Shown here one piece after another: positions 13,115 through 39,739 of a stretch of 64,000 nt of DNA. This stretch comes from Pelagomonas calceolata. Lineage: Eukaryota. The position numbers and the translations under genes were made by a program. Each line of letters begins with the position of its first letter. Positions within the stretch are counted from its first letter, which is position 1. A model generated the notes under the pieces. That model saw only the letters and a list, made by a program, of their open reading frames with translations. It was not told the DNA's origin and did not search any database. Where the stretch lies: NCBI GenBank assembly GCA_918797485.1, contig CAKKNE010000002.1, positions 5,766,001-5,830,000 of the forward strand, in the 5' to 3' direction.

Positions 13115-13993
13115 ATGGGCCTCACATCAAGAGACAAGCGCGACGCCTACTACCGCCTCGCCAAGGCGCACGGCTACCGCGCGCGCGCGGCGTTCAAGCT
13201 CATCCAGATGGAGGACACGCTTTCGTTATTGAAAAACGCGACGCGCGTCGTGGACCTGTGCGCGGCGCCCGGGGGCTGGACGCAAGTTGTGGTGGAGCGC
13301 TGCGCCGCGGCGGTCGTCGCCGTCGACCTGAAGGACGTCGCGCCGGTCGACGGGGCGACCATATTGGTGGGGGACCTGACCTCGCCGCTCGTCATCGAGC
13401 GCATCGCTTCGACCTTGGACGGCAAGGCGGATGTTGTATTGTGCGACGGCGCCCCGGACGTCCTCGACCTCGGCGACGTCGACGCGCACCTCCAGCTGTC
13501 GTTATGTAGGGCGGCCCTGGTGTGCGCGCGCAAGGTGCTCGCACAGGGCGGGAGCTTCGTCTGCAAAATATATCGGGGCCGCGGCGCGGCGGCGTTCTTC
13601 GACGAGCTGCGGCGCGAGTTCGCCGACGTGCTCTGCGCGAAGCCGCGCTGCTCGCGCCACGCGTCCGTCGAGGCCTACGCCGTCGGGCGCGGGTTCGGGC
13701 GCGCTTCCGATGCCACGGGCCCGGTCCCCTTCGTCGCGTGCGGCGGCGCGGACGCGTTCGACGCCGACGCGTCGTATGCGCTGGAGGAGGACTACGTCTA
13801 CCGCGACCCGGTCCAGGCGCCGCTGCGGCCGCCGCACCTCGTCGGCGTGCCGACGCCGCCGCCCGCGCCGACGGCGCGGCGCGCGGCGCCCGCGGTCGCG
13901 GCGCGGCCGCCTCGGCGGCGGGAGGCGTTGGCTTGTGAAGGGGCGCCGCCTCCGGCTTCGGATGCGGGCGGGTTGGGGGCGTGGTTTTTGTAA
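13115..13993 (+). CDS. TRM7: tRNA (C32/N34) 2'-O-methyltransferase, FtsJ family
   Basis: MGLTSRDKRDAYYRLAKAHGYRARAAFKL, VVDLCAAPGGW, VLCDGAPD, KPRCSR..SVEAY, and the DADASY / PVQAP tail of TRM7/FTSJ1. Confidence 0.9.
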   Translation: MGLTSRDKRDAYYRLAKAHGYRARAAFKLIQMEDTLSLLKNATRVVDLCAAPGGWTQVVVERCAAAVVAVDLKDVAPVDGATILVGDLTSPLVIERIASTLDGKADVVLCDGAPDVLDLGDVDAHLQLSLCRAALVCARKVLAQGGSFVCKIYRGRGAAAFFDELRREFADVLCAKPRCSRHASVEAYAVGRGFGRASDATGPVPFVACGGADAFDADASYALEEDYVYRDPVQAPLRPPHLVGVPTPPPAPTARRAAPAVAARPPRRREALACEGAPPPASDAGGLGAWFL

Positions 13994-14257: not shown

Positions 14258-14389
14258 ACCAAAACTAGTTAGTGTATTTTAAGGTAGCTCCTCGGCAGAC
14301 TATCTCAACCGCCGTACTCCCAAAGGTGCGTTCTCCTTTGGTCTTGCATCATTCGCATGCCAGCCCTGGGGAGCGCGTACGCCGCGCAA

Positions 14390-14615
14390 GTGCTGAGGAC
14401 TAGCTAGCCCACCAAGCGCTCGTCGCGCACGTGCTGAGGACTAGCTAGCCCGCCGTGTGCGCGTCGCCCGAGCGCTTATGACTAGCGAACCAGCCCTGCG
14501 CGCGCCGCGCAAGTGCTGAGGACTAGCTAGCCCACCGCGCGCTCGTCGCGCAAGTGCTGAAGACTACCTAGCCCGCCACACGCTCGACGAAAAAGTGCTG
14601 AGGACTAGCTAGCCC
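14390..14615 (+). repeat. 41-bp-period array: 6 copies of GTGCTGAGGACTAGCTAGCCC separated by 20-bp variable segments
   Basis: Units start at 14390, 14431, 14472 (degenerate), 14513, 14554 and 14595. Confidence 0.9.
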
Positions 14616-14641
14616 ACCGAAATTAGTCAAACCACACACAT

Positions 14642-15274
14642 TCACTCCTCTCCGTCGAGCTCGCACGCCAAGTCCTCGAGCGCCTCGTTGACGCTCGCCA
14701 CGACCTCGCGTGAGCGACGTTCGAGGTGCGCCGTCGCCGCGTCGGTGTCGGGGCGGAACGCCCCGAGGTGCCGTGCGGCCGTGAGCTCCAGCTTCTCTTT
14801 CTCGGCTTCCTGCAGCCGTCGGATGGCGTCGGCCGCGGCCGACAGGCCGCGGGACCGGAGCGCGGCCTCGCAAGCATTCGCGCGCTTTGAAATTCGGTCG
14901 AAGACTACGGTCACCTTGGCGACGACGGTCGCGTACGCCGCTGGATCGCCTTGCCGGCCCTCGCCGGGTGCGCACGCTACCAATGCTTCATCGTATTGTT
15001 TGTATGTTGCTGTTCTGTCCTGCTGCAACTTCCGCACGCGCGCCAGAAGCTCTGGCGCAGGGAGACCAGACACGTCGACGTCTTCAGGCTCGGCCGCGTC
15101 AGGGGCGTCCACGACCGGCGGCGCTGGCGGTAACGCTGTCGGCGCGCCCATGTCTATCGTCTGCTGCGTCGGATTGGACTGCTCCGCCTGCGTCTGCGAT
15201 GGCGTCTGGGCGAGCTCAGCCTGCTTTTGCCTGGCGTGATTTTGGAGGATGTTGAGGGCGGCGGTGGGGTCCAT
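14642..15274 (-). CDS. REX1-B (required for excision 1-B)-like coiled-coil protein
   Basis: LQQDRTATYKQYDEAL...VTVVFDRIS...IRRLQEAEKEKLELTA...VNEALEDL resembles the REX1-B/C19orf60 family. Confidence 0.7.
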   Translation of the reverse strand: MDPTAALNILQNHARQKQAELAQTPSQTQAEQSNPTQQTIDMGAPTALPPAPPVVDAPDAAEPEDVDVSGLPAPELLARVRKLQQDRTATYKQYDEALVACAPGEGRQGDPAAYATVVAKVTVVFDRISKRANACEAALRSRGLSAAADAIRRLQEAEKEKLELTAARHLGAFRPDTDAATAHLERRSREVVASVNEALEDLACELDGEE

Positions 15275-15462
15275 GGTGCTTTGCGGGTGCCCTCTTGATG
15301 TCGGCGCGTGGCTGCGCGCAGTTCGAGCCTCGTGCTCTCCCGCGATTCGCGGCGACGCCGCGCGAGCAGCTGCATCACGGGTTTTGTCTCGGGTCCCTTC
15401 TCATCCCATGGATCGAGAAAAATCAGCTATGCTCACCGGTCTTTGGACCGTTGTACGTATCT

Positions 15463-15599
15463 GCCCCTTTGGCTCCGATGTTTTGAAAAGACATCGCCAC
15501 TAGTCGGTAGAGCGTCCGCACGCGTAACACCGTGCCGCCCAAGTCTCATAATGCATATAAGAAATCTGAAGGTCGACAGTTCGATCCTGTCAGGGGGCA
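15463..15599 (+). tRNA. tRNA-Met(CAT), elongator, with three introns (15476-15501, 15517-15541, 15551-15563)
   Basis: Spliced 73-nt cloverleaf: GCCCCTT TG GCTC AGTCGGTA GAGC G TCAGT CTCATAA TCTGA AGGTC GACAG TTCGATC CTGTC AGGGGGC A; followed by an oligo-T Pol III terminator. Confidence 0.9.
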
Positions 15600-15606
15600 G
15601 AGCATA

Positions 15607-15614
15607 TTTTTTTT
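15607..15614 (+). terminator. Pol III oligo-T terminator of tRNA-Met
   Basis: T8 run beginning 8 nt after the discriminator base. Confidence 0.7.
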
Positions 15615-15839
15615 GCTTTTAGTCTCTTACGGAACCCCCTGCCGGTGTAACTAGGGTAACTCGGCCCAATATCCCCAAGGGGGGGCTTGGCCCGAGCGAA
15701 AAGCTACATTTACGTTGGGGGGCTGCCACCGACGACCCCCCGGCGGCCGAAGATGGGCCTCCTCGACGCCCACGTTCGTACCCCGTTGTCTATTCCCGTG
15801 GTCGTCCCCGAGCGCCGAAACGCGACTAAAACGGCTCCG

Positions 15840-15925
15840 GGGCTTGCGCTCTGAGACTGGCCTCGGAGCGTCGACCGGGGCGCGCTGACGGCGTCGCGCT
15901 GACTCGTGCCCGGTCGTCACGGAGG
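15840..15925 (-). repeat. 86-bp inverted repeat, right arm
   Basis: Exact reverse complement of 14015-14100. Confidence 0.9.
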
Positions 15926-16280
15926 CATGAGCTGGCCGACGTCGATCGGCGCCGCGCAAGTCCCCGGGGCAAGGAGCGACTACGCCAGGCGTGCCATCCA
16001 GTCCTCAGCACTTCCGCGACGAGCGTATGGCGGGCGAAGGGAGTTCTCCACGTAAAACCCGAAAAGCACGAGCTCGAGATTTTGCGCCAGCACAGCCTCT
16101 GCGTAGCGGTCGTGTGTTGCATCGACCGAGCTGTTGGTGTGCGCAACAGCAACCCACGAAACCCACTACTGCCCGTGCGAAACACCGGTGCAGAACGAAG
16201 CAGCCATGCCGTTTTTGGAGGCAGGCTAAAATCGTCTCCCACAGATACGACCGGAACGCGGCGCGAAAGAAGTAACAGAA

Positions 16281-17156: not shown

Positions 17157-18305
17157 TTAACGCCTCCTACCGGGACTCCGCCCGCCCTTCCGGCTCTCCT
17201 GGATCATGCTCACCTCGAAGTCCGTCATGCCCTTCTTCTTGATGCCCTGGACGAACTGGAGCCGCATCGCGCGCTCGGCCGCCGCTCTCTTTTTCGCTTC
17301 CGCGGCGCCCGGCGAGTCCACCGGCGCGTTCGGGTTGAGCAGCTCGCGCAGCTCGCGCGCCTCCTCGCGCGACATCTTCCCGTCGTTCCCGAGGTCGTCC
17401 ACCAAGCTCGCGGCCCGCTTCTGCGACGCCGTCGGCGACTTCTTGGCGACGGGCGACGGGAAGCCGTCGCGCCGCTTTGGAGGCGACCGCTTCGGCATCG
17501 GCGAGCGCGCCGTCGCGCCGTCCTCGGAAGTGTTCGGCATAAACGCCGAGACGAGTCTCAAATCCTTGGCCGAGAAGCCGCCGGCCTGCTCTCCTAGTAA
17601 ATACTTGACATGTTTCAAGTCCGCGGGCGTCCTGGGCCGTCTTCTCCTCCGCCGCGGCGCCGCGACGGGTGCGAGCGCGATGGATCCCACCGACGGGCGC
17701 GGCGGCGGCGCGGCTATCGATCTCCGCCGGCGGCGCGGCCGCCGCGGTTCACTGGTAGCGGCGGCGGTGCCCAATTCCGCAATCCAGTTCGTGGGCGAGG
17801 GCGCCGCAGGCATTTCCGGGACTCCGCCGCCAAAGCGCACCGGCGACCTCTGAACGGGCGCCGGGAAGTCCAGCGGCTTCAATAGAGCCGCCGCGTCCGC
17901 GGGCCCCGCTAATAAACCTTCCATGTACTCGGGGTTCGGCAATCCAAACCTATCGACGGGCCGCGCCGCGCGCGTCCGCCGTCCATCGATTCTTTTGATA
18001 TAGTCCGGCCGGCCCCCGAGGTACTCGGGGCCTTGCACCGTCTCGATCTGCGGTAGTAATCGCGGAACCGCCTTCGTGGGTGGTGGGTCCTGGAAGCGCC
18101 GTCTCACGGGCGGCGCCGCCGCGGCTTCCAGAAACTCGGCCTGGGCGATCTGCATGCTCAAGAACTCGTCGCGCTCCCTTATAGCTCGCTTTTGCCGGTC
18201 CTGCGCGCGTCTTTTTCTATCATCGTCCCTCAATAAAAGCTCGCGCTCGCGGTCGGCGGCCGGGTCCTCCCAGCCGGCGCGCCGGCCGTAGCGGTTGCGG
18301 CCCAT
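17157..18305 (-). CDS. Hypothetical basic, Pro-rich protein
   Basis: Long ORF; likely start MGRNRY at 18305 in AAAAATG context; no family recognised. Confidence 0.6.
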   Translation of the reverse strand: MGRNRYGRRAGWEDPAADRERELLLRDDDRKRRAQDRQKRAIRERDEFLSMQIAQAEFLEAAAAPPVRRRFQDPPPTKAVPRLLPQIETVQGPEYLGGRPDYIKRIDGRRTRAARPVDRFGLPNPEYMEGLLAGPADAAALLKPLDFPAPVQRSPVRFGGGVPEMPAAPSPTNWIAELGTAAATSEPRRPRRRRRSIAAPPPRPSVGSIALAPVAAPRRRRRRPRTPADLKHVKYLLGEQAGGFSAKDLRLVSAFMPNTSEDGATARSPMPKRSPPKRRDGFPSPVAKKSPTASQKRAASLVDDLGNDGKMSREEARELRELLNPNAPVDSPGAAEAKKRAAAERAMRLQFVQGIKKKGMTDFEVSMIQESRKGGRSPGRRR

Positions 18306-20060: not shown

Positions 20061-22101
20061 CTACGCCTCGACCTTCTCTTCGGGCGCCTTCTCGAACGCC
20101 CCCTCGTCCAACTGGTCCATCTCGTCGACGTCCTGGAGCATCGCGAACAGCGCGTCGACGTCGATCTTGCCCAGATCCCCCCTACCGCGCGCGCGCACGG
20201 ACAGCCGCCCCGACGACGTCTCCTGCTCTCCCACGACGCACATGAGCGGCACGCGCTGCTGCTCGGCGTTGCGGATCTGCTTGTTCAACCTATCCTTCCC
20301 GGGGTCGACCTCGCACCGTAGACCGCGCCTCTTCGCCTTCGCGGCGACGTCGGCGCAGAAGCCCCGCGCTTCGTCGGTCACCGGTAATAATCGCAATTGA
20401 GTAGGGGCTAACCATAAAGGTAAATCGCCGCCCACGCTCTCGAGCAGGATGGCGAAGAATCTCTCCAATGAACCAAAAATGGCCCGGTGGACCATGATCG
20501 GCCGCTCATCCTTCCCCTCGCTGTTTCGATAGTTCAGGTCGAACCGATCGGGGAGATTGAAGTCGCACTGCACCGTCGAGCACTGCCACTGGCGCCCGAT
20601 CGCGTCTTTTATTTTTAAGTCAATCTTGGGGCCGTAGAAGGCGCCGCCGCCCTCGTCCACACCATATTTCCACTCCTTCCGGATCAAGGCGCCCTCCAGC
20701 GCCTTCGTCGCCTTCTCCCAGATCTCGTCGGAACCGACGGCCTTCTCAGGACGAGTAGACAGCATCAACTCATAATCCGTGAAGCCGAACTTCGTCAGGA
20801 TCTCCTGCGTCAACTCCAGCACGTCCACAATCTCATCTTCCAGCTGGTCCGGCGTGCAAAAAATGTGCGCGTCGTCTTGAGTGAAGCCTCGCACTCTCAT
20901 GAGACCCTGTAACGTGCCTGACCGCTCGTATCTGTAGACCGTACCGAGCTCCGCCCACCTGTAAGGCAGGTCTCTGTAAGAGCGTAGTTGGTCCTTGAAC
21001 ACCAAGCAGTGGAACGGACAGTTCATCGGCTTGAGCTGGTACTGCTCCTTCTCGACCTGTGTGGAAATCAACCAGTGAGCCTCCACGCCATCGAGCCGAC
21101 GCGGTCACGGGGACGCCGTCGCGTCGATGGCGCCGCAATTTGATGTCCACACAGGCAGCGACGTCCATCTGGTCGAACATGCCGTCGGCGTAGAAGTCGA
21201 AGTGGCCGCTCGTCTTCCAGAGCTCGACGTTCGCGATGTGCGGCGTGTAGAGTAACTCATAACCTCCCTTCTCGTGCAGGTCCTTCCACGTCTGTTCCAT
21301 CAGGCCCCGCACGCGCGCGCCTCGGGGATGCCAGAAGCAGAGGCCGCCGCCGGCCTGCTCTTGGATCGAGAACAAATCTAACTTCTTCCCGAGCAACCGA
21401 TGGTCGCGTTTCTTCGCCTCCTCCATCCGACGCTTGTGCTCCTTCAGTTGCCAGGCCTCGGGCCAGGCCGTGCCGTAGATGCGCGTGAGCATCTCTCGGT
21501 TCTCGTCGCCGCGCCAGTAGGCGCCCGCCACGCTTTCTAAGGCTACGGCTTTTGGCGAGATCTTTCCCGTCGACTCGAGGTGCGGCCCGGCGCACAGGTC
21601 CCACCACTCGTCCCCAATCCTGTAGAAGGAGATTTCGGCTTCATCCGGTAAATTGTCCACGACCTCGACCTTAAAGGTCTCGCCCTGATCTAGGAGGAAC
21701 TGTCGCGCTTCTTCTCGCGGCAACACTTCGCGAATGATAGGATAGTCCTTCTTGATGATCTTGTCCATCTCCTTCTTGATCCTCTTCAAGTCTTTATCGG
21801 TGATGGCCTCGCCCGTAGGCTTGTGAAAATCATAATAATAACCATTCTCGATCCAGGGGCCGATCGTGACTTGTACTTCATCCTTAAAGACGTTTTTTAC
21901 TGCCAAAGCCATGACGTGCGACGCCGAGTGTCGTAGTTTGACCATCTCTTCGTCTGCGTTTGTTGGTAATTGTGCGGCTTCGATCTCCTCCTGCGTCGCG
22001 GGCATGTGGCGCGCGACGGTCAGTGGCGCGCGCCGCCTGACGAGGGGCGCGAGCGCGCGCGCGCTGCGCAGGACGCCTGCCAGTAACATGGCCCGTCGCA
22101 T
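20061..22101 (-). CDS. thrS: Threonyl-tRNA synthetase, organellar/bacterial type; two exons (22101-21163, 21056-20061)
   Basis: RHSASHVMA, DLCAGPH, RDHRLLG, LKPMNCPFH, RVRGFTQDDAHIF, HRAIFGSLERF. Removing intron 21057-21162 restores MFDQMD-VEKEQYQLKPMNCP. Confidence 0.95.
21057..21162 (-). mobile_element. Introner element forming a 106-bp intron
   Basis: Minus strand: GTCGCTGC + TIR CTGTGTGGACATCAA ... TTGATTTCCACACAG | GTCGAGAA; 14/15-bp TIR, and the first 4 nt of the putative 8-bp TSD match. Confidence 0.85.
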
Positions 22102-35592: not shown

Positions 35593-35909
35593 CGCGATTA
35601 TTTATTTTGCTGCACTGCTCTCTCCCTGCACCTTTTATCCTGCTCTGAGCGCTGCAGTTTTTCACGTGGGCCGCCTCGCGCTACTTTTTTTGCGTACAGC
35701 TCAGCAAATTCCAGGCGCACTGGCGTATTTATGCGACCATCCAGCCCGCTTTGCGCCACCATAACTCAAACGTGCCGGGTTTTACAGGGCGTTCGCTCCA
35801 CGCGTGGCGCCATCAAGGTTCGCCCACCAAATGGCGTCATAAAAAGCCGCTGAGGACTAGCTCGCCCGCCGCGGAACGTAGGGTCCTAAGTAATTTTAAG
35901 CGGCGGGCC

Positions 35910-37273: not shown

Positions 37274-37382
37274 CACCCGAGGTGGGACTTGAACCCACGA
37301 CCAGTATCCTCTGCGCGTAGCAGATCTGGATTAAAAGTCCAGCGCTCTGACCAACTGAGCTACCTATGCCTGAAGATCGGGC
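37274..37382 (-). tRNA. tRNA-Lys(TTT) with two non-canonical introns (37377-37365 at 5/6; 37325-37304 at 43/44)
   Basis: Spliced 74-nt cloverleaf: GCCCGGG TA GCTC AGTTGGTCA GAGC G CTGGA CTTTTAA TCCAG TGGTC GTGGG TTCAAGT CCCAC CTCGGGT G; oligo-T runs downstream. Confidence 0.9.
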
Positions 37383-37674: not shown

Positions 37675-39570
37675 ATGGCGGACGACGTGAGTGACGAGCC
37701 GCCCGTCGGCGACGCGCGCACCAGCTGGCTGCCAGCGCAAAGCGCACAAATTCTCGCTCTCGGCGACGCCGCGCGCCGCAGAAACGCTGCGTACCAAAAT
37801 GCCTGGCAAAAGCTGCAGCCGCCCGCGAAGACGCAGCCGCTCAAAAGTTCGGAGCGCCGGAGCTTGCGCCAGGCGCTGCAGAAGCAGTTTGCGCCAGCGC
37901 TCGACGCGGCCGAAGCCATCGACGCAGTATTGCCGACGAGCAAAAACGCCGCGGTGACGCGCGGCCGCCAAGACAGGACGGAGCTGATCCTCGTCGACGG
38001 CGTCGTGGCGCTCGCGTCGCAAGAGCCGGTCGACGGGGACGCGAAATCGAGAGCCGCGCGCAAGACGTGGGTCCCGACGCCGCTCGTGCTGCAGCGATGC
38101 CCGCACATCCTGCGACAAGTCGCCGTGCATGCGCCCGTGGCGCACGGCCCCCTCAAGCGGGGTGCAGATTTGTACGCGGGCGGCGTCGTCGGCTTCGGTC
38201 ACGCGACGCGGGAGACAGCGGGATCGTGGCCCGAGGCGCTCTTTGGCGGCCCCATCGCCCAGGGCGAGCTAGTCGCGGTCTGCGCGCGCGATTCGTGGGC
38301 GCCCGTCGCCGTCGGCCGATTTTCGAAATCTTCCGAGGACATGGTGCTCGAGGGGAGCCGCGGCGCGTGCGTCGACGTACTGCTCAGAGTCGGCGACGGC
38401 GTCTGGCCCAACACGGCCGTGGACGCGTCGACGTCGTCGTCGAGCCCGCCCGAATTCTGCGTCGCCGCCGCCGCGGCGGCGGCCGAGAGCGCGGCGGACG
38501 CGCTCGCCTTGGCCGCGGAGCGGCACGCCGCGCGGACCGCTGCGGCGGCGGCGGCCGCGCACGCGGCCGAGGTCCTCGACCTCAAGGCGCGGACGAAGCG
38601 CCTCGCCAAGTCGCTCCGCCAGGTCGCGGACCTGCGCGGGCGGGAGCTCAAGGACGACGCGCAGCGCACCAAGGCCGCGCGCGGGCCCGCGCTCGAAGCG
38701 GAGCTCGCCTACGCCGAGGCCCGGCTCGCGGAGCTCCAGCGCGCGGTCGACGACGCGGCTGCGTCCAATGGTGTCGCTGAGGCCGCTGTTGAGGGCGCCG
38801 CCGGAGATACGGACGAGGCCGCGGGCGCCGATGTCGGCGACGATGGCGCTGACGCCGAGACCGAAGCCGCCGCCGGCGACACGGACGCTGCAGATGACGA
38901 CGACGAAGAGGAGGCCGCCGCGCCGCCGCCGTCCCCCGACGAGATCTTCCGCGCAGCGTTCCTCACGACACTGCGGCGCGACCTGAAGCCGCCCGTGCTC
39001 GCCGCCGAGGCCGTCGGCGCGGCGGCGAAGCTAGGGGGCGCGTCCGTGAAGGAGACGTCGTGGAAGAAGGCTGCCAAATTCCTGGAGAGCCTCGCGGGCG
39101 TCGTCGACTGCAGGGAGAAGTCCAAGGGCGTCCTCGAGGTCGTGTCCGTGGACTGGGGTCGAGCGCCTCCGTTTGAACTCGTCGAGAAGGCTGCCGTCGC
39201 GGACGAGTTCGCCGCGCTGCGCGCCACGAAGAGGGGAGGCTGCGTCACCGTCTCCGTGCGGCGCGTGCGCAACAAGAACTGCACGTTCGTGGACGGGTTA
39301 GACGGGTGGGGCTTCGACGAAGCGCGACAGAAAGCCGTCGCGGCGGCCCTCCGGACCAAATTCTCCGCCGCGGCGTCGGTCGCGGCGAGAAAAGGCACCG
39401 AGGACAACCGCAAGGGCAAGAAGTTCTTCTCGATCATGGTCCAGGGCAAGTACGCCGAGCAGATCGGCGACGTCCTCCGGCGGGATTTTGGCGTGCTCAC
39501 TGTGTCAGTGCAGGCGAAGAAGGGCCTGGTGACGAAGAAGGACCGGCAGGCGTTCTCGAGCGCGCTCTAG
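37675..39570 (+). CDS. EIF2D: eIF2D/ligatin-like protein (PUA and SUI1 domains)
   Basis: LKSSERRSLR, GADLYAGGV (PUA), VKETSWKKAAKFL, RNKNCTFVDGL...IMVQG (SUI1). Confidence 0.75.
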   Translation: MADDVSDEPPVGDARTSWLPAQSAQILALGDAARRRNAAYQNAWQKLQPPAKTQPLKSSERRSLRQALQKQFAPALDAAEAIDAVLPTSKNAAVTRGRQDRTELILVDGVVALASQEPVDGDAKSRAARKTWVPTPLVLQRCPHILRQVAVHAPVAHGPLKRGADLYAGGVVGFGHATRETAGSWPEALFGGPIAQGELVAVCARDSWAPVAVGRFSKSSEDMVLEGSRGACVDVLLRVGDGVWPNTAVDASTSSSSPPEFCVAAAAAAAESAADALALAAERHAARTAAAAAAAHAAEVLDLKARTKRLAKSLRQVADLRGRELKDDAQRTKAARGPALEAELAYAEARLAELQRAVDDAAASNGVAEAAVEGAAGDTDEAAGADVGDDGADAETEAAAGDTDAADDDDEEEAAAPPPSPDEIFRAAFLTTLRRDLKPPVLAAEAVGAAAKLGGASVKETSWKKAAKFLESLAGVVDCREKSKGVLEVVSVDWGRAPPFELVEKAAVADEFAALRATKRGGCVTVSVRRVRNKNCTFVDGLDGWGFDEARQKAVAAALRTKFSAAASVAARKGTEDNRKGKKFFSIMVQGKYAEQIGDVLRRDFGVLTVSVQAKKGLVTKKDRQAFSSAL

Positions 39571-39607: not shown

Positions 39608-39710
39608 GGGCTAGCTAGTCCTCAGCACTTTTTCGTCGAGCGTATGACGGGCTAGCTAGTCCTCAGCACCTGCGCGGCGTGCGCAGGGCGGGCTAGCTAG
39701 TCCTCAGCAC
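39608..39710 (-). repeat. Second 41-bp-period array (3 units of the same 21-mer)
   Basis: GGGCTAGCTAGTCCTCAGCAC at 39608, 39649 and 39690. Confidence 0.9.
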
Positions 39711-39739
39711 TTTTGCCCGACACGCGCCGCAGGCGGCTA

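Follow-up and report, generated by a model that had tools for sequence, protein, structure and literature searches.

Among described systems, the closest is found in Cyanidioschyzon merolae, a red alga (Soma et al. 2013, PMC3728597). In the sections of that paper used here, its nuclear tRNA genes carry up to three short introns each with relaxed HBh' or hBH motifs, D-stem introns combined with 37/38 introns, a split A-box and a T-run terminator, all of which recur at the locus described below. The 42 introns in 27 C. merolae genes are placed there at 37/38 and in the D-stem, D-loop, variable arm, T-stem and T-loop, and neither the anticodon-stem site (28/29, Met) nor the acceptor-stem site (5/6, Lys) found in the present study is among them (PMC3728597). 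C. merolae is furthermore a red alga with permuted genes whose splicing was shown by RT-PCR, whereas our genes belong to a stramenopile and their splicing is predicted. A three-intron elongator tRNA-Met and non-canonical sites including the anticodon arm are likewise given for the Guillardia theta nucleomorph in the consulted parts of PMC4090602 and PMC3978253; this is, however, a relic red-algal nucleus with introns of 3-24 nt, mostly without a BHB, in contrast to the clear motifs in a host nucleus observed here. The red alga Chondrus crispus resembles our case in carrying archaeal-type BHB introns in nuclear genes, elongator Met among them (PMC13578239, in part). The green alga Ostreococcus lucimarinus shares an anticodon-stem intron (27/28) in a nuclear tRNA, but as a single intron in a permuted gene, green algae being almost free of ectopic introns according to the same portion of PMC3978253.

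Crenarchaea, including Thermoproteales, also resemble our locus in having BHB introns, up to three per gene, with sites at 29/30, 30/31, 45/46 and acceptor 3/4, and transposition of tRNA introns between genes has been proposed for them (PMC8450103, PMC4090602, relevant sections). Their genes are served by archaeal EndA and archaeal promoters, while ours is a eukaryotic Pol III gene. In the account available of a natural Caldiarchaeum population the introns themselves are heterogeneous, whereas here the hairpin sequence varies at fixed positions and intron number does not. Among algae, a 2026 review (PMC13578239), in the part consulted, lists non-canonical nuclear tRNA introns for red algae and red-derived nucleomorphs, with two stramenopiles sampled. 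A 2023 review (PMC10485636, in part) treats as open whether TSENs outside animals and fungi cut non-canonical introns and states that eukaryotic tRNAscan settings miss them. We found no stramenopile case of such introns in the open literature, subscription journals and bioRxiv supplements lying outside this search, and nothing on stramenopile tRNA introns stands in the accessible portions of PMC9602550, PMC13728533, PMC10720644 and PMC8975779. As far as the available text of the Pelagomonas genome paper (PMC9481584) extends, its main text lacks the word 'tRNA' and four of its supplements contain neither a tRNAscan nor a tRNA-gene term, and the Aureococcus genome note (PMC11237714), in the part seen, gives a tRNAscan count alone.

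In this study, we describe a pelagophyte nuclear gene for elongator tRNA-Met, which inserts at 13/14, 28/29 and 37/38 divide into four pieces, in a 64-kb stretch of DNA (64,000 nt, hereafter the window). It is very probably a working gene, the inserts of which are predicted to be cut by a tRNA-splicing endonuclease that reads local BHB shapes. The observations behind this reading are the anatomy of the gene, relaxed BHB motifs at the required junctions, conserved exons together with compensated hairpins in a diverged allele, and a second gene built alike. The features of the Met gene are as follows, with L002 denoting the diverged allele.

15417..15462, + strand: conserved leader, candidate upstream promoter without TATA, which may also serve a divergent REX1-B-like gene; 1 of 46 nt differs in L002, against about 10% in the flanks
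15463..15475, + strand: exon 1 of tRNA-Met(CAU), tRNA positions 1-13, with the acceptor 5' strand, the 5' D-stem and the first A-box half; its TGGC is the 5' strand of central helix 1; identical in L002
15476..15501, + strand: intron 1 (26 nt), inserted at 13/14 as an HBh' motif with 4/4 pairs in the central helix and 8 bp, one of them G.U, in the inner one; local fold -10.5 kcal/mol
15502..15516, + strand: exon 2, tRNA positions 14-28, with the D-loop, the 3' D-stem and the start of the anticodon stem; unchanged in L002
15517..15541, + strand: intron 2 (25 nt), inserted at 28/29 as a relaxed HBh' motif with 3/4 pairs in the central helix and 5 bp plus 2 in the inner one; local fold -9.9 kcal/mol
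15542..15550, + strand: exon 3, tRNA positions 29-37, with the anticodon CAT at 15547-15549
15551..15563, + strand: intron 3, canonical 37/38, 13 nt; weak central helix, 3/4 including a C32:G pair; identical in L002
15564..15599, + strand: exon 4, tRNA positions 38-73, with an intact B-box at 15579-15587; CCA is not encoded
15607..15614, + strand: eight T in a row, probably the site where RNA polymerase III terminates, starting after 7 nt downstream of the gene; 15600-15626 is identical in L002

The first-pass annotation of this DNA had read the four exons of 13, 15, 9 and 36 nt as a full elongator tRNA-Met after joining, and its coordinates and lengths proved exact, ARAGORN calling the 73-nt product tRNA-Met(CAT) with a score of 115.0. 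The cloverleaf pairs at 7/7 positions in the acceptor stem, 4/4 in the D-stem, 4/5 in the anticodon stem and 5/5 in the T-stem, the anticodon is CAU, the conserved D- and T-loop bases are in place, and the U31-U39 mismatch seen at first pass is present as the one open pair of the anticodon stem. The marks used to tell elongator from initiator Met are G1-C72, T54 and three G-C pairs in the anticodon stem; the joined sequence has G1-C72 and T54, and its anticodon stem is without a run of three G-C pairs. L001, a Met gene without interruption from another eukaryote, is identical to the joined product at 59/73 positions and throughout the anticodon arm. It entered the analysis as one of two loci (L001 and L002) from a metagenome scan that required an insert at 28/29 and was blind to intron-free copies because its pattern demanded that insert, and as an interrupted gene it is a chance pattern match. 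Left unspliced, the Met gene escapes both ARAGORN on the raw window and Rfam at the gathering threshold and at E up to 5. ARAGORN scores 107.6 with insert 3 alone retained and 102-104 with insert 2 retained, compared with 115.0 without inserts, and makes no call in 4 of the 8 insert combinations, all of them keeping insert 1.

The BHB motif that had been proposed for intron 1 was largely upheld, with central helix TGGC/GCCA (4/4), bulges and cut sites as claimed, but the inner helix is longer than was given, namely 8 bp with one G.U. For intron 2, the helix AGCG/CGCC (3/4, with an A.C mismatch), the bulges and the cut sites agree with the sequence, and intron 3 is indeed canonical, with 13 nt at 37/38. 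The cut sites coincide with the junctions that the cloverleaf requires, as the earlier reading had it; junctions 1 and 2 cannot slide, whereas that of intron 3, which has no stable fold of its own (0 kcal/mol), can slide within an A run. A 4-bp central helix, 3-nt bulges and a cut after the second bulge base are found in intron 1 (4/4), intron 2 (3/4) and both inserts of the tRNA-Lys gene described below (4/4 each). Since the outer helix amounts to one pair in intron 1 and is absent (0 pairs) in intron 2, both are relaxed HBh' rather than strict hBHBh' motifs. The fold of the whole Met precursor is only modestly better than that of shuffled sequences (z -1.94; 6/200). The inserts run CG..CT, CG..CA and AT..AA, and the GT...AG ends of spliceosomal introns are absent on either strand.

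Natural variation at the locus is seen in L002, an orthologous and independent JGI metagenome contig, which is 92% identical to the window over 1656 columns and the first 70 bases of which are a chimeric inverted copy. Nothing differs in the four exons, in intron 3 or in the final 6 nt of introns 1 and 2, and the 46-nt leader shows one difference and the 27-nt trailer none, while the flanks differ by 5-12%, those between genes by 8-12%, and third codon positions at 22/210; zero differences in 73 exon positions against about 10% in the flanks corresponds to P about 5e-4. Within introns 1 and 2, a different hairpin stands in each case: intron 1 of L002 has 25 nt with another 7-bp hairpin (L002:1357-1381), and intron 2 has another 7-bp hairpin (L002:1397-1421) with 5/5 outer pairs changed on both sides. 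The inner parts match the window in just 10/21 columns for intron 1 and 9/20 for intron 2, yet the hairpins close exactly where the motif needs them. Comparison of 12 outer hairpin pairs gave 8 changed on both sides, 1 changed on one side, 3 the same and 0 broken, and each of the four hairpins is reached by 0.03-0.3% of 200,000 shuffles. Counting covariation on the 8 in-register inner pairs yields 7 double changes, which 4/500 shuffles reach and which are lost on sliding, a count that draws on two sequences (one metagenome contig and the window) with the structure derived from the same pair. The pairings that had been postulated from the window thus hold in a related strain, L002 keeping the central helices and the cut-site dinucleotides letter for letter and the inner helices by way of two-sided changes. 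As the shape of hairpins at odd sites is kept despite changed letters, the alga likely splices its tRNAs by reading RNA shape. Anatomy, geometry and the L002 pairing together support the earlier identification of a multi-intron elongator tRNA-Met with BHB-type junctions.

At least 15 changes in 39 hairpin sites, where 12% divergence is expected, have a probability of about 2e-5, so the divergence of the intron 1 and 2 hairpins far exceeds that of neutral sites. A further contig, from run X13 (634 nt over 15258-15880), is as diverged in its flanks as L002 and shares some of the L002 indels, but all of its 17 gap letters lie outside the Met gene and none of the 19 listed substitutions (there being 12 further ones) falls within it. 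X13 has introns of window length and probably of window-type sequence, to judge from these counts. With one contig per state, this probable retention of window-type introns suggests that the L002 hairpins arrived as a block and not by gradual drift, and recombination with a distant allele or paralogue, or replacement, suggests itself as the route; template switching at hairpins is another possible cause. Just 3' of the Met terminator, the GC-rich segment 15630-15740 with inverted repeats varies among haplotypes and has no Rfam match; at 15707, L002, X13 and X20 carry an insertion of 9-10 nt.

A second disrupted gene, tRNA-Lys(UUU), lies in the same window.

37274..37382, - strand: tRNA-Lys(UUU), with exons 37382-37378, 37364-37326 and 37303-37274 and T runs at 37264-37260 and 37256-37250
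37365..37377, - strand: intron 1 in the acceptor stem, 13 nt, at 5/6 by BHB geometry, although 6/7 also gives a full stem; central helix TGCC/GGCA 4/4
37304..37325, - strand: intron 2 (22 nt), inserted at 43/44, with 4/4 pairs in the central helix ATCC/GGAT and 5 bp in the inner one

With both inserts removed, the acceptor stem pairs at 7/7 positions and ARAGORN scores 123.3, compared with no call when both are kept. ARAGORN accepts insert 2 on its own, reading it as a long variable arm (119.1), and such arms do occur in phage Lys(UUU) genes of the viral collection. The Rfam match starts at 37369, leaving insert 1 in place, with acceptor positions unpaired, and shows a long insertion following the anticodon arm. 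Intron 1 has an inner helix of a single pair, matched by 20% of shuffles; its central helix uses leader base -1 and its outer helix leader bases -2 and -3. Since the acceptor-stem motif draws on leader bases, this intron would have to be spliced before 5' trimming. Both of the two credible tRNA genes in the window are disrupted and neither is permuted. An ARAGORN call of tRNA-Asn(ATT) at 17833-17918 (-) is likely false, as it falls within a 382-aa ORF and Rfam gives no match for it.

The similarly built Lys gene bears on whether the Met gene is a tolerated dead copy, that is, a one-intron gene hit by two short hairpin insertions while an intact copy serves elsewhere. Short insertions in the D- or T-arm of eukaryotic tRNA genes are usually read as pseudogenes, according to the section of PMC4090602 consulted. 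Such a copy would however have to account for exons without a single difference amid flanks diverged by a tenth, for compensated hairpins in L002, for cut-site geometry that fits a BHB at both inserts and for a neighbour in the same window with the same construction, and we regard it as very unlikely.

The host was placed by its proteins, 5/6 of those tested from the window having matches in the protein collection, many of them environmental cluster members. For the Trm7/FtsJ-like neighbour, the closest named homologues among the best 120 of 2621 matches are from Chrysophaeum taylorii (58%), Aureococcus anophagefferens (57%) and Pelagophyceae sp. CCMP2097 (50%), with oomycetes next at up to 47%. 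A tree of this one gene, built from 24 chosen rows and having long branches, joins the window to the three pelagophytes with support of 100/100 and separates it from the oomycetes and the one red alga. Homologue ranking and this grouping rule out a red-algal host, and assignment of the nucleus to the class Pelagophyceae, a stramenopile, is well supported by these sequence comparisons. The GC content of the window is 62.6%, and the Pelagomonas calceolata genome averages 63% in the portion of PMC9481584 at hand; Pelagomonas is the probable genus.

For the splicing machinery, the Pelagomonas gene table (PMC9481584, supplement 4) was searched over 14,639 rows of 16,667 genes (88%), reaching to near the start of the last chromosome. 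These rows contain two PF01974 genes, one labelled as an archaeal-type tRNA-intron endonuclease and the other fused to a SAP domain, as well as one Sen54 and RtcB, and the term Sen15 is absent from them. On the transcription side the same rows list TFIIIB B'' and Brf1, whereas four TFIIIC names, five Pfam accessions, Tau95 and four KO numbers returned 0 matches among the 14,639 of 16,667 genes. The Pfam accessions and KO numbers are those which we take to denote TFIIIC. For C. merolae, the part of PMC3728597 used here reports Sen2, Sen34 and Sen54, with no Sen15 and no TFIIIC found, and the Pelagomonas table shows the same pattern over the 88% of genes searched. This hints at the same Sen15-less and TFIIIC-less set as in C. 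merolae, the hint coming from a single genus with no control species and from annotation, which misses divergent subunits. We infer, as the first-pass annotation did, a motif-recognising splicing system, and the second disrupted gene and the gene table agree with it.

The annotated Sen54 also lends something to a reading in which the gene works but its ectopic inserts are removed by an enzyme other than TSEN (a separate nuclease, virus-derived or imported), TSEN cutting at 37/38 only: Sen54 is the ruler subunit and is thought to refuse D-arm introns (PMC3728597, in part), and the SAP-domain fusion among the two PF01974 genes is unusual. A 4-bp helix, 3-nt bulges and a cut after the second bulge base are nevertheless the signature of TSEN/EndA, eukaryotic TSEN can cut BHB substrates as stated in the consulted section of PMC4090602, and the insert ends are not GT-AG on either strand, leaving a separate enzyme hardly probable.

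A BHB-splice scanner, which takes every T-arm as its starting point, excises as many as three BHB-shaped inserts and rates the cloverleaf over 21 stem pairs, found genes at 2/4 T-arm anchors in the window, with 20 and 21 of 21 pairs. In 16.6 Mb of dinucleotide-shuffled window, 3/1010 anchors gave genes, scoring 17, 17 and 18; this comparison is a generous test because the rules were written knowing both genes, although no shuffle reached 20 or 21. Three free insertions do allow many cloverleaf constructions, but with a best shuffled score of 18 against 20 and 21 observed, and with the Met gene recurring in an independent JGI contig as well as, in unspliced form, among the contigs from four runs, chance resemblance or an assembly or alignment artefact can be dismissed.

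That intron 1 interrupts the A-box, as noted at first pass, was verified, the split lying at 13/14, and transcription would then depend on the B-box, which is intact, or on the conserved leader. No TATA, TAAA or CAA occurs within 60 nt upstream of the Met or the Lys gene, the latter having an AT-rich stretch at about 75-80 nt upstream; in C. merolae, by contrast, upstream TATA-like boxes are reported in the part of PMC3728597 used. A 7-mer common to both upstream regions is within chance, and a sigma-70 scan match inside the Met gene has no bearing, the gene being nuclear. Across 4 poly(A) raw runs of one sample, of which 6-12% each was covered, 0 reads fell on 15392-15679 and the divergent neighbour was covered up to about 15335-15390, poly(A) data being uninformative for tRNA. 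Contigs of four runs carry the Met gene unspliced, with no intron-skipping joint among them. One of the contigs, from run X1 (207 nt, exact, 15445-15651, depth 4.6), was considered as a precursor and rejected, since it extends past the T run and contigs show neither strand nor ends.

For the working, BHB-spliced gene, we propose a model in which Pol III would make a single precursor that stops at the T run. Both stable HBh' motifs, each at about -10 kcal/mol, would fold independently and be cut first by a motif-reading TSEN, the removal of introns 1 and 2 letting the D-arm and anticodon arm form. By analogy with C. merolae, the weak 37/38 intron would be cut last, in a tRNA-shaped intermediate; for its tRNA-Phe and tRNA-Ile the order of processing was measured, with the 37/38 intron last (PMC3728597, section used). 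RtcB would then join the exons. A reduced Sen2/Sen34(/Sen54) complex that lacks Sen15 is the probable enzyme, and selection would act on the central helix, on the two bases before each cut and on the existence of the inner hairpin, but not on the hairpin sequence.

The feature is real, and it is a known kind of tRNA intron system, here in a new supergroup, the nucleus of a stramenopile host; its novelty lies in the lineage, because the host is a stramenopile. Two intron positions outside the C. merolae list and strikingly variable, fast-changing hairpins are also notable. A stramenopile case extends the trait to another supergroup and weakens its value as a marker of red-algal ancestry, and the tRNA sets of pelagophyte genomes, which belong to some of the most abundant oceanic picoalgae, are probably under-annotated. 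A culturable alga together with natural alleles that show which bases matter renders non-canonical TSEN cutting testable, and fast hairpin turnover at fixed sites offers a handle on the origin and movement of tRNA introns. Beyond this locus, we tentatively consider, while holding it rather doubtful, that pelagophytes run a genome-wide archaeal-style tRNA system unseen by standard annotation. Most tRNA genes would then be hidden by multiple BHB introns at new sites (in the anticodon stem, and in the acceptor stem with leader-dependent folding), served by a Sen15-less endonuclease and TFIIIC-free transcription, and hairpins would be exchanged or rewritten as modules in wild populations, at a pace well above that of neutral DNA; giant viruses might be involved, either as exchange partners or as what is defended against. 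If true, this would be a second independent eukaryotic origin or a red-algal endosymbiont legacy in the host nucleus.

The viral collection yielded 0 matches to the Met intron-2 pattern and 0 to Met exon 4. The 13/14 pattern and the short 28/29 pattern had at least 120 matches each, with 0 tRNAs after splicing among the matches listed. None of the 121 viral Lys matches, mostly phage genes with long variable arms, has a BHB at 43/44, and prokaryote genomes gave 0 matches to Met exon 4 and 0 to Lys exon 3. In about 110/121 of the viral tRNA-Lys(UUU) matches (L124-L128, L130 and others) the variable arm is long and class II-like, L192 and L220 carry a longer insert there without a BHB, and in L126, L129, L152, L186, L208 and L234 another T-arm-like segment comes directly after the tRNA-Lys, resembling a partial tandem duplication or the scar of an integration.

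Several neighbours of the two tRNA genes are worth recording. The Trm7/FtsJ-like gene at 13115-13993 (+), for a tRNA 32/34 2'-O-methyltransferase, and a threonyl-tRNA-synthetase-like gene at 20061-22101 (-) both lie less than 7 kb from the Met gene, and an eIF2D-like gene at 37675-39570 (+) starts about 300 nt from the Lys gene; the proximity is probably a coincidence in each case. The frame of the synthetase-like gene is broken by a short insert with GC...AG-type ends at about 21090-21165 (-), which in our estimation resembles pelagophyte introner elements. Finally, a family of 41-nt tandem repeats occurs at 14380-14618, 39608-39716, about 16000-16035 and 35850-35870, intergenic and just 3' of genes, and is kept in L002.
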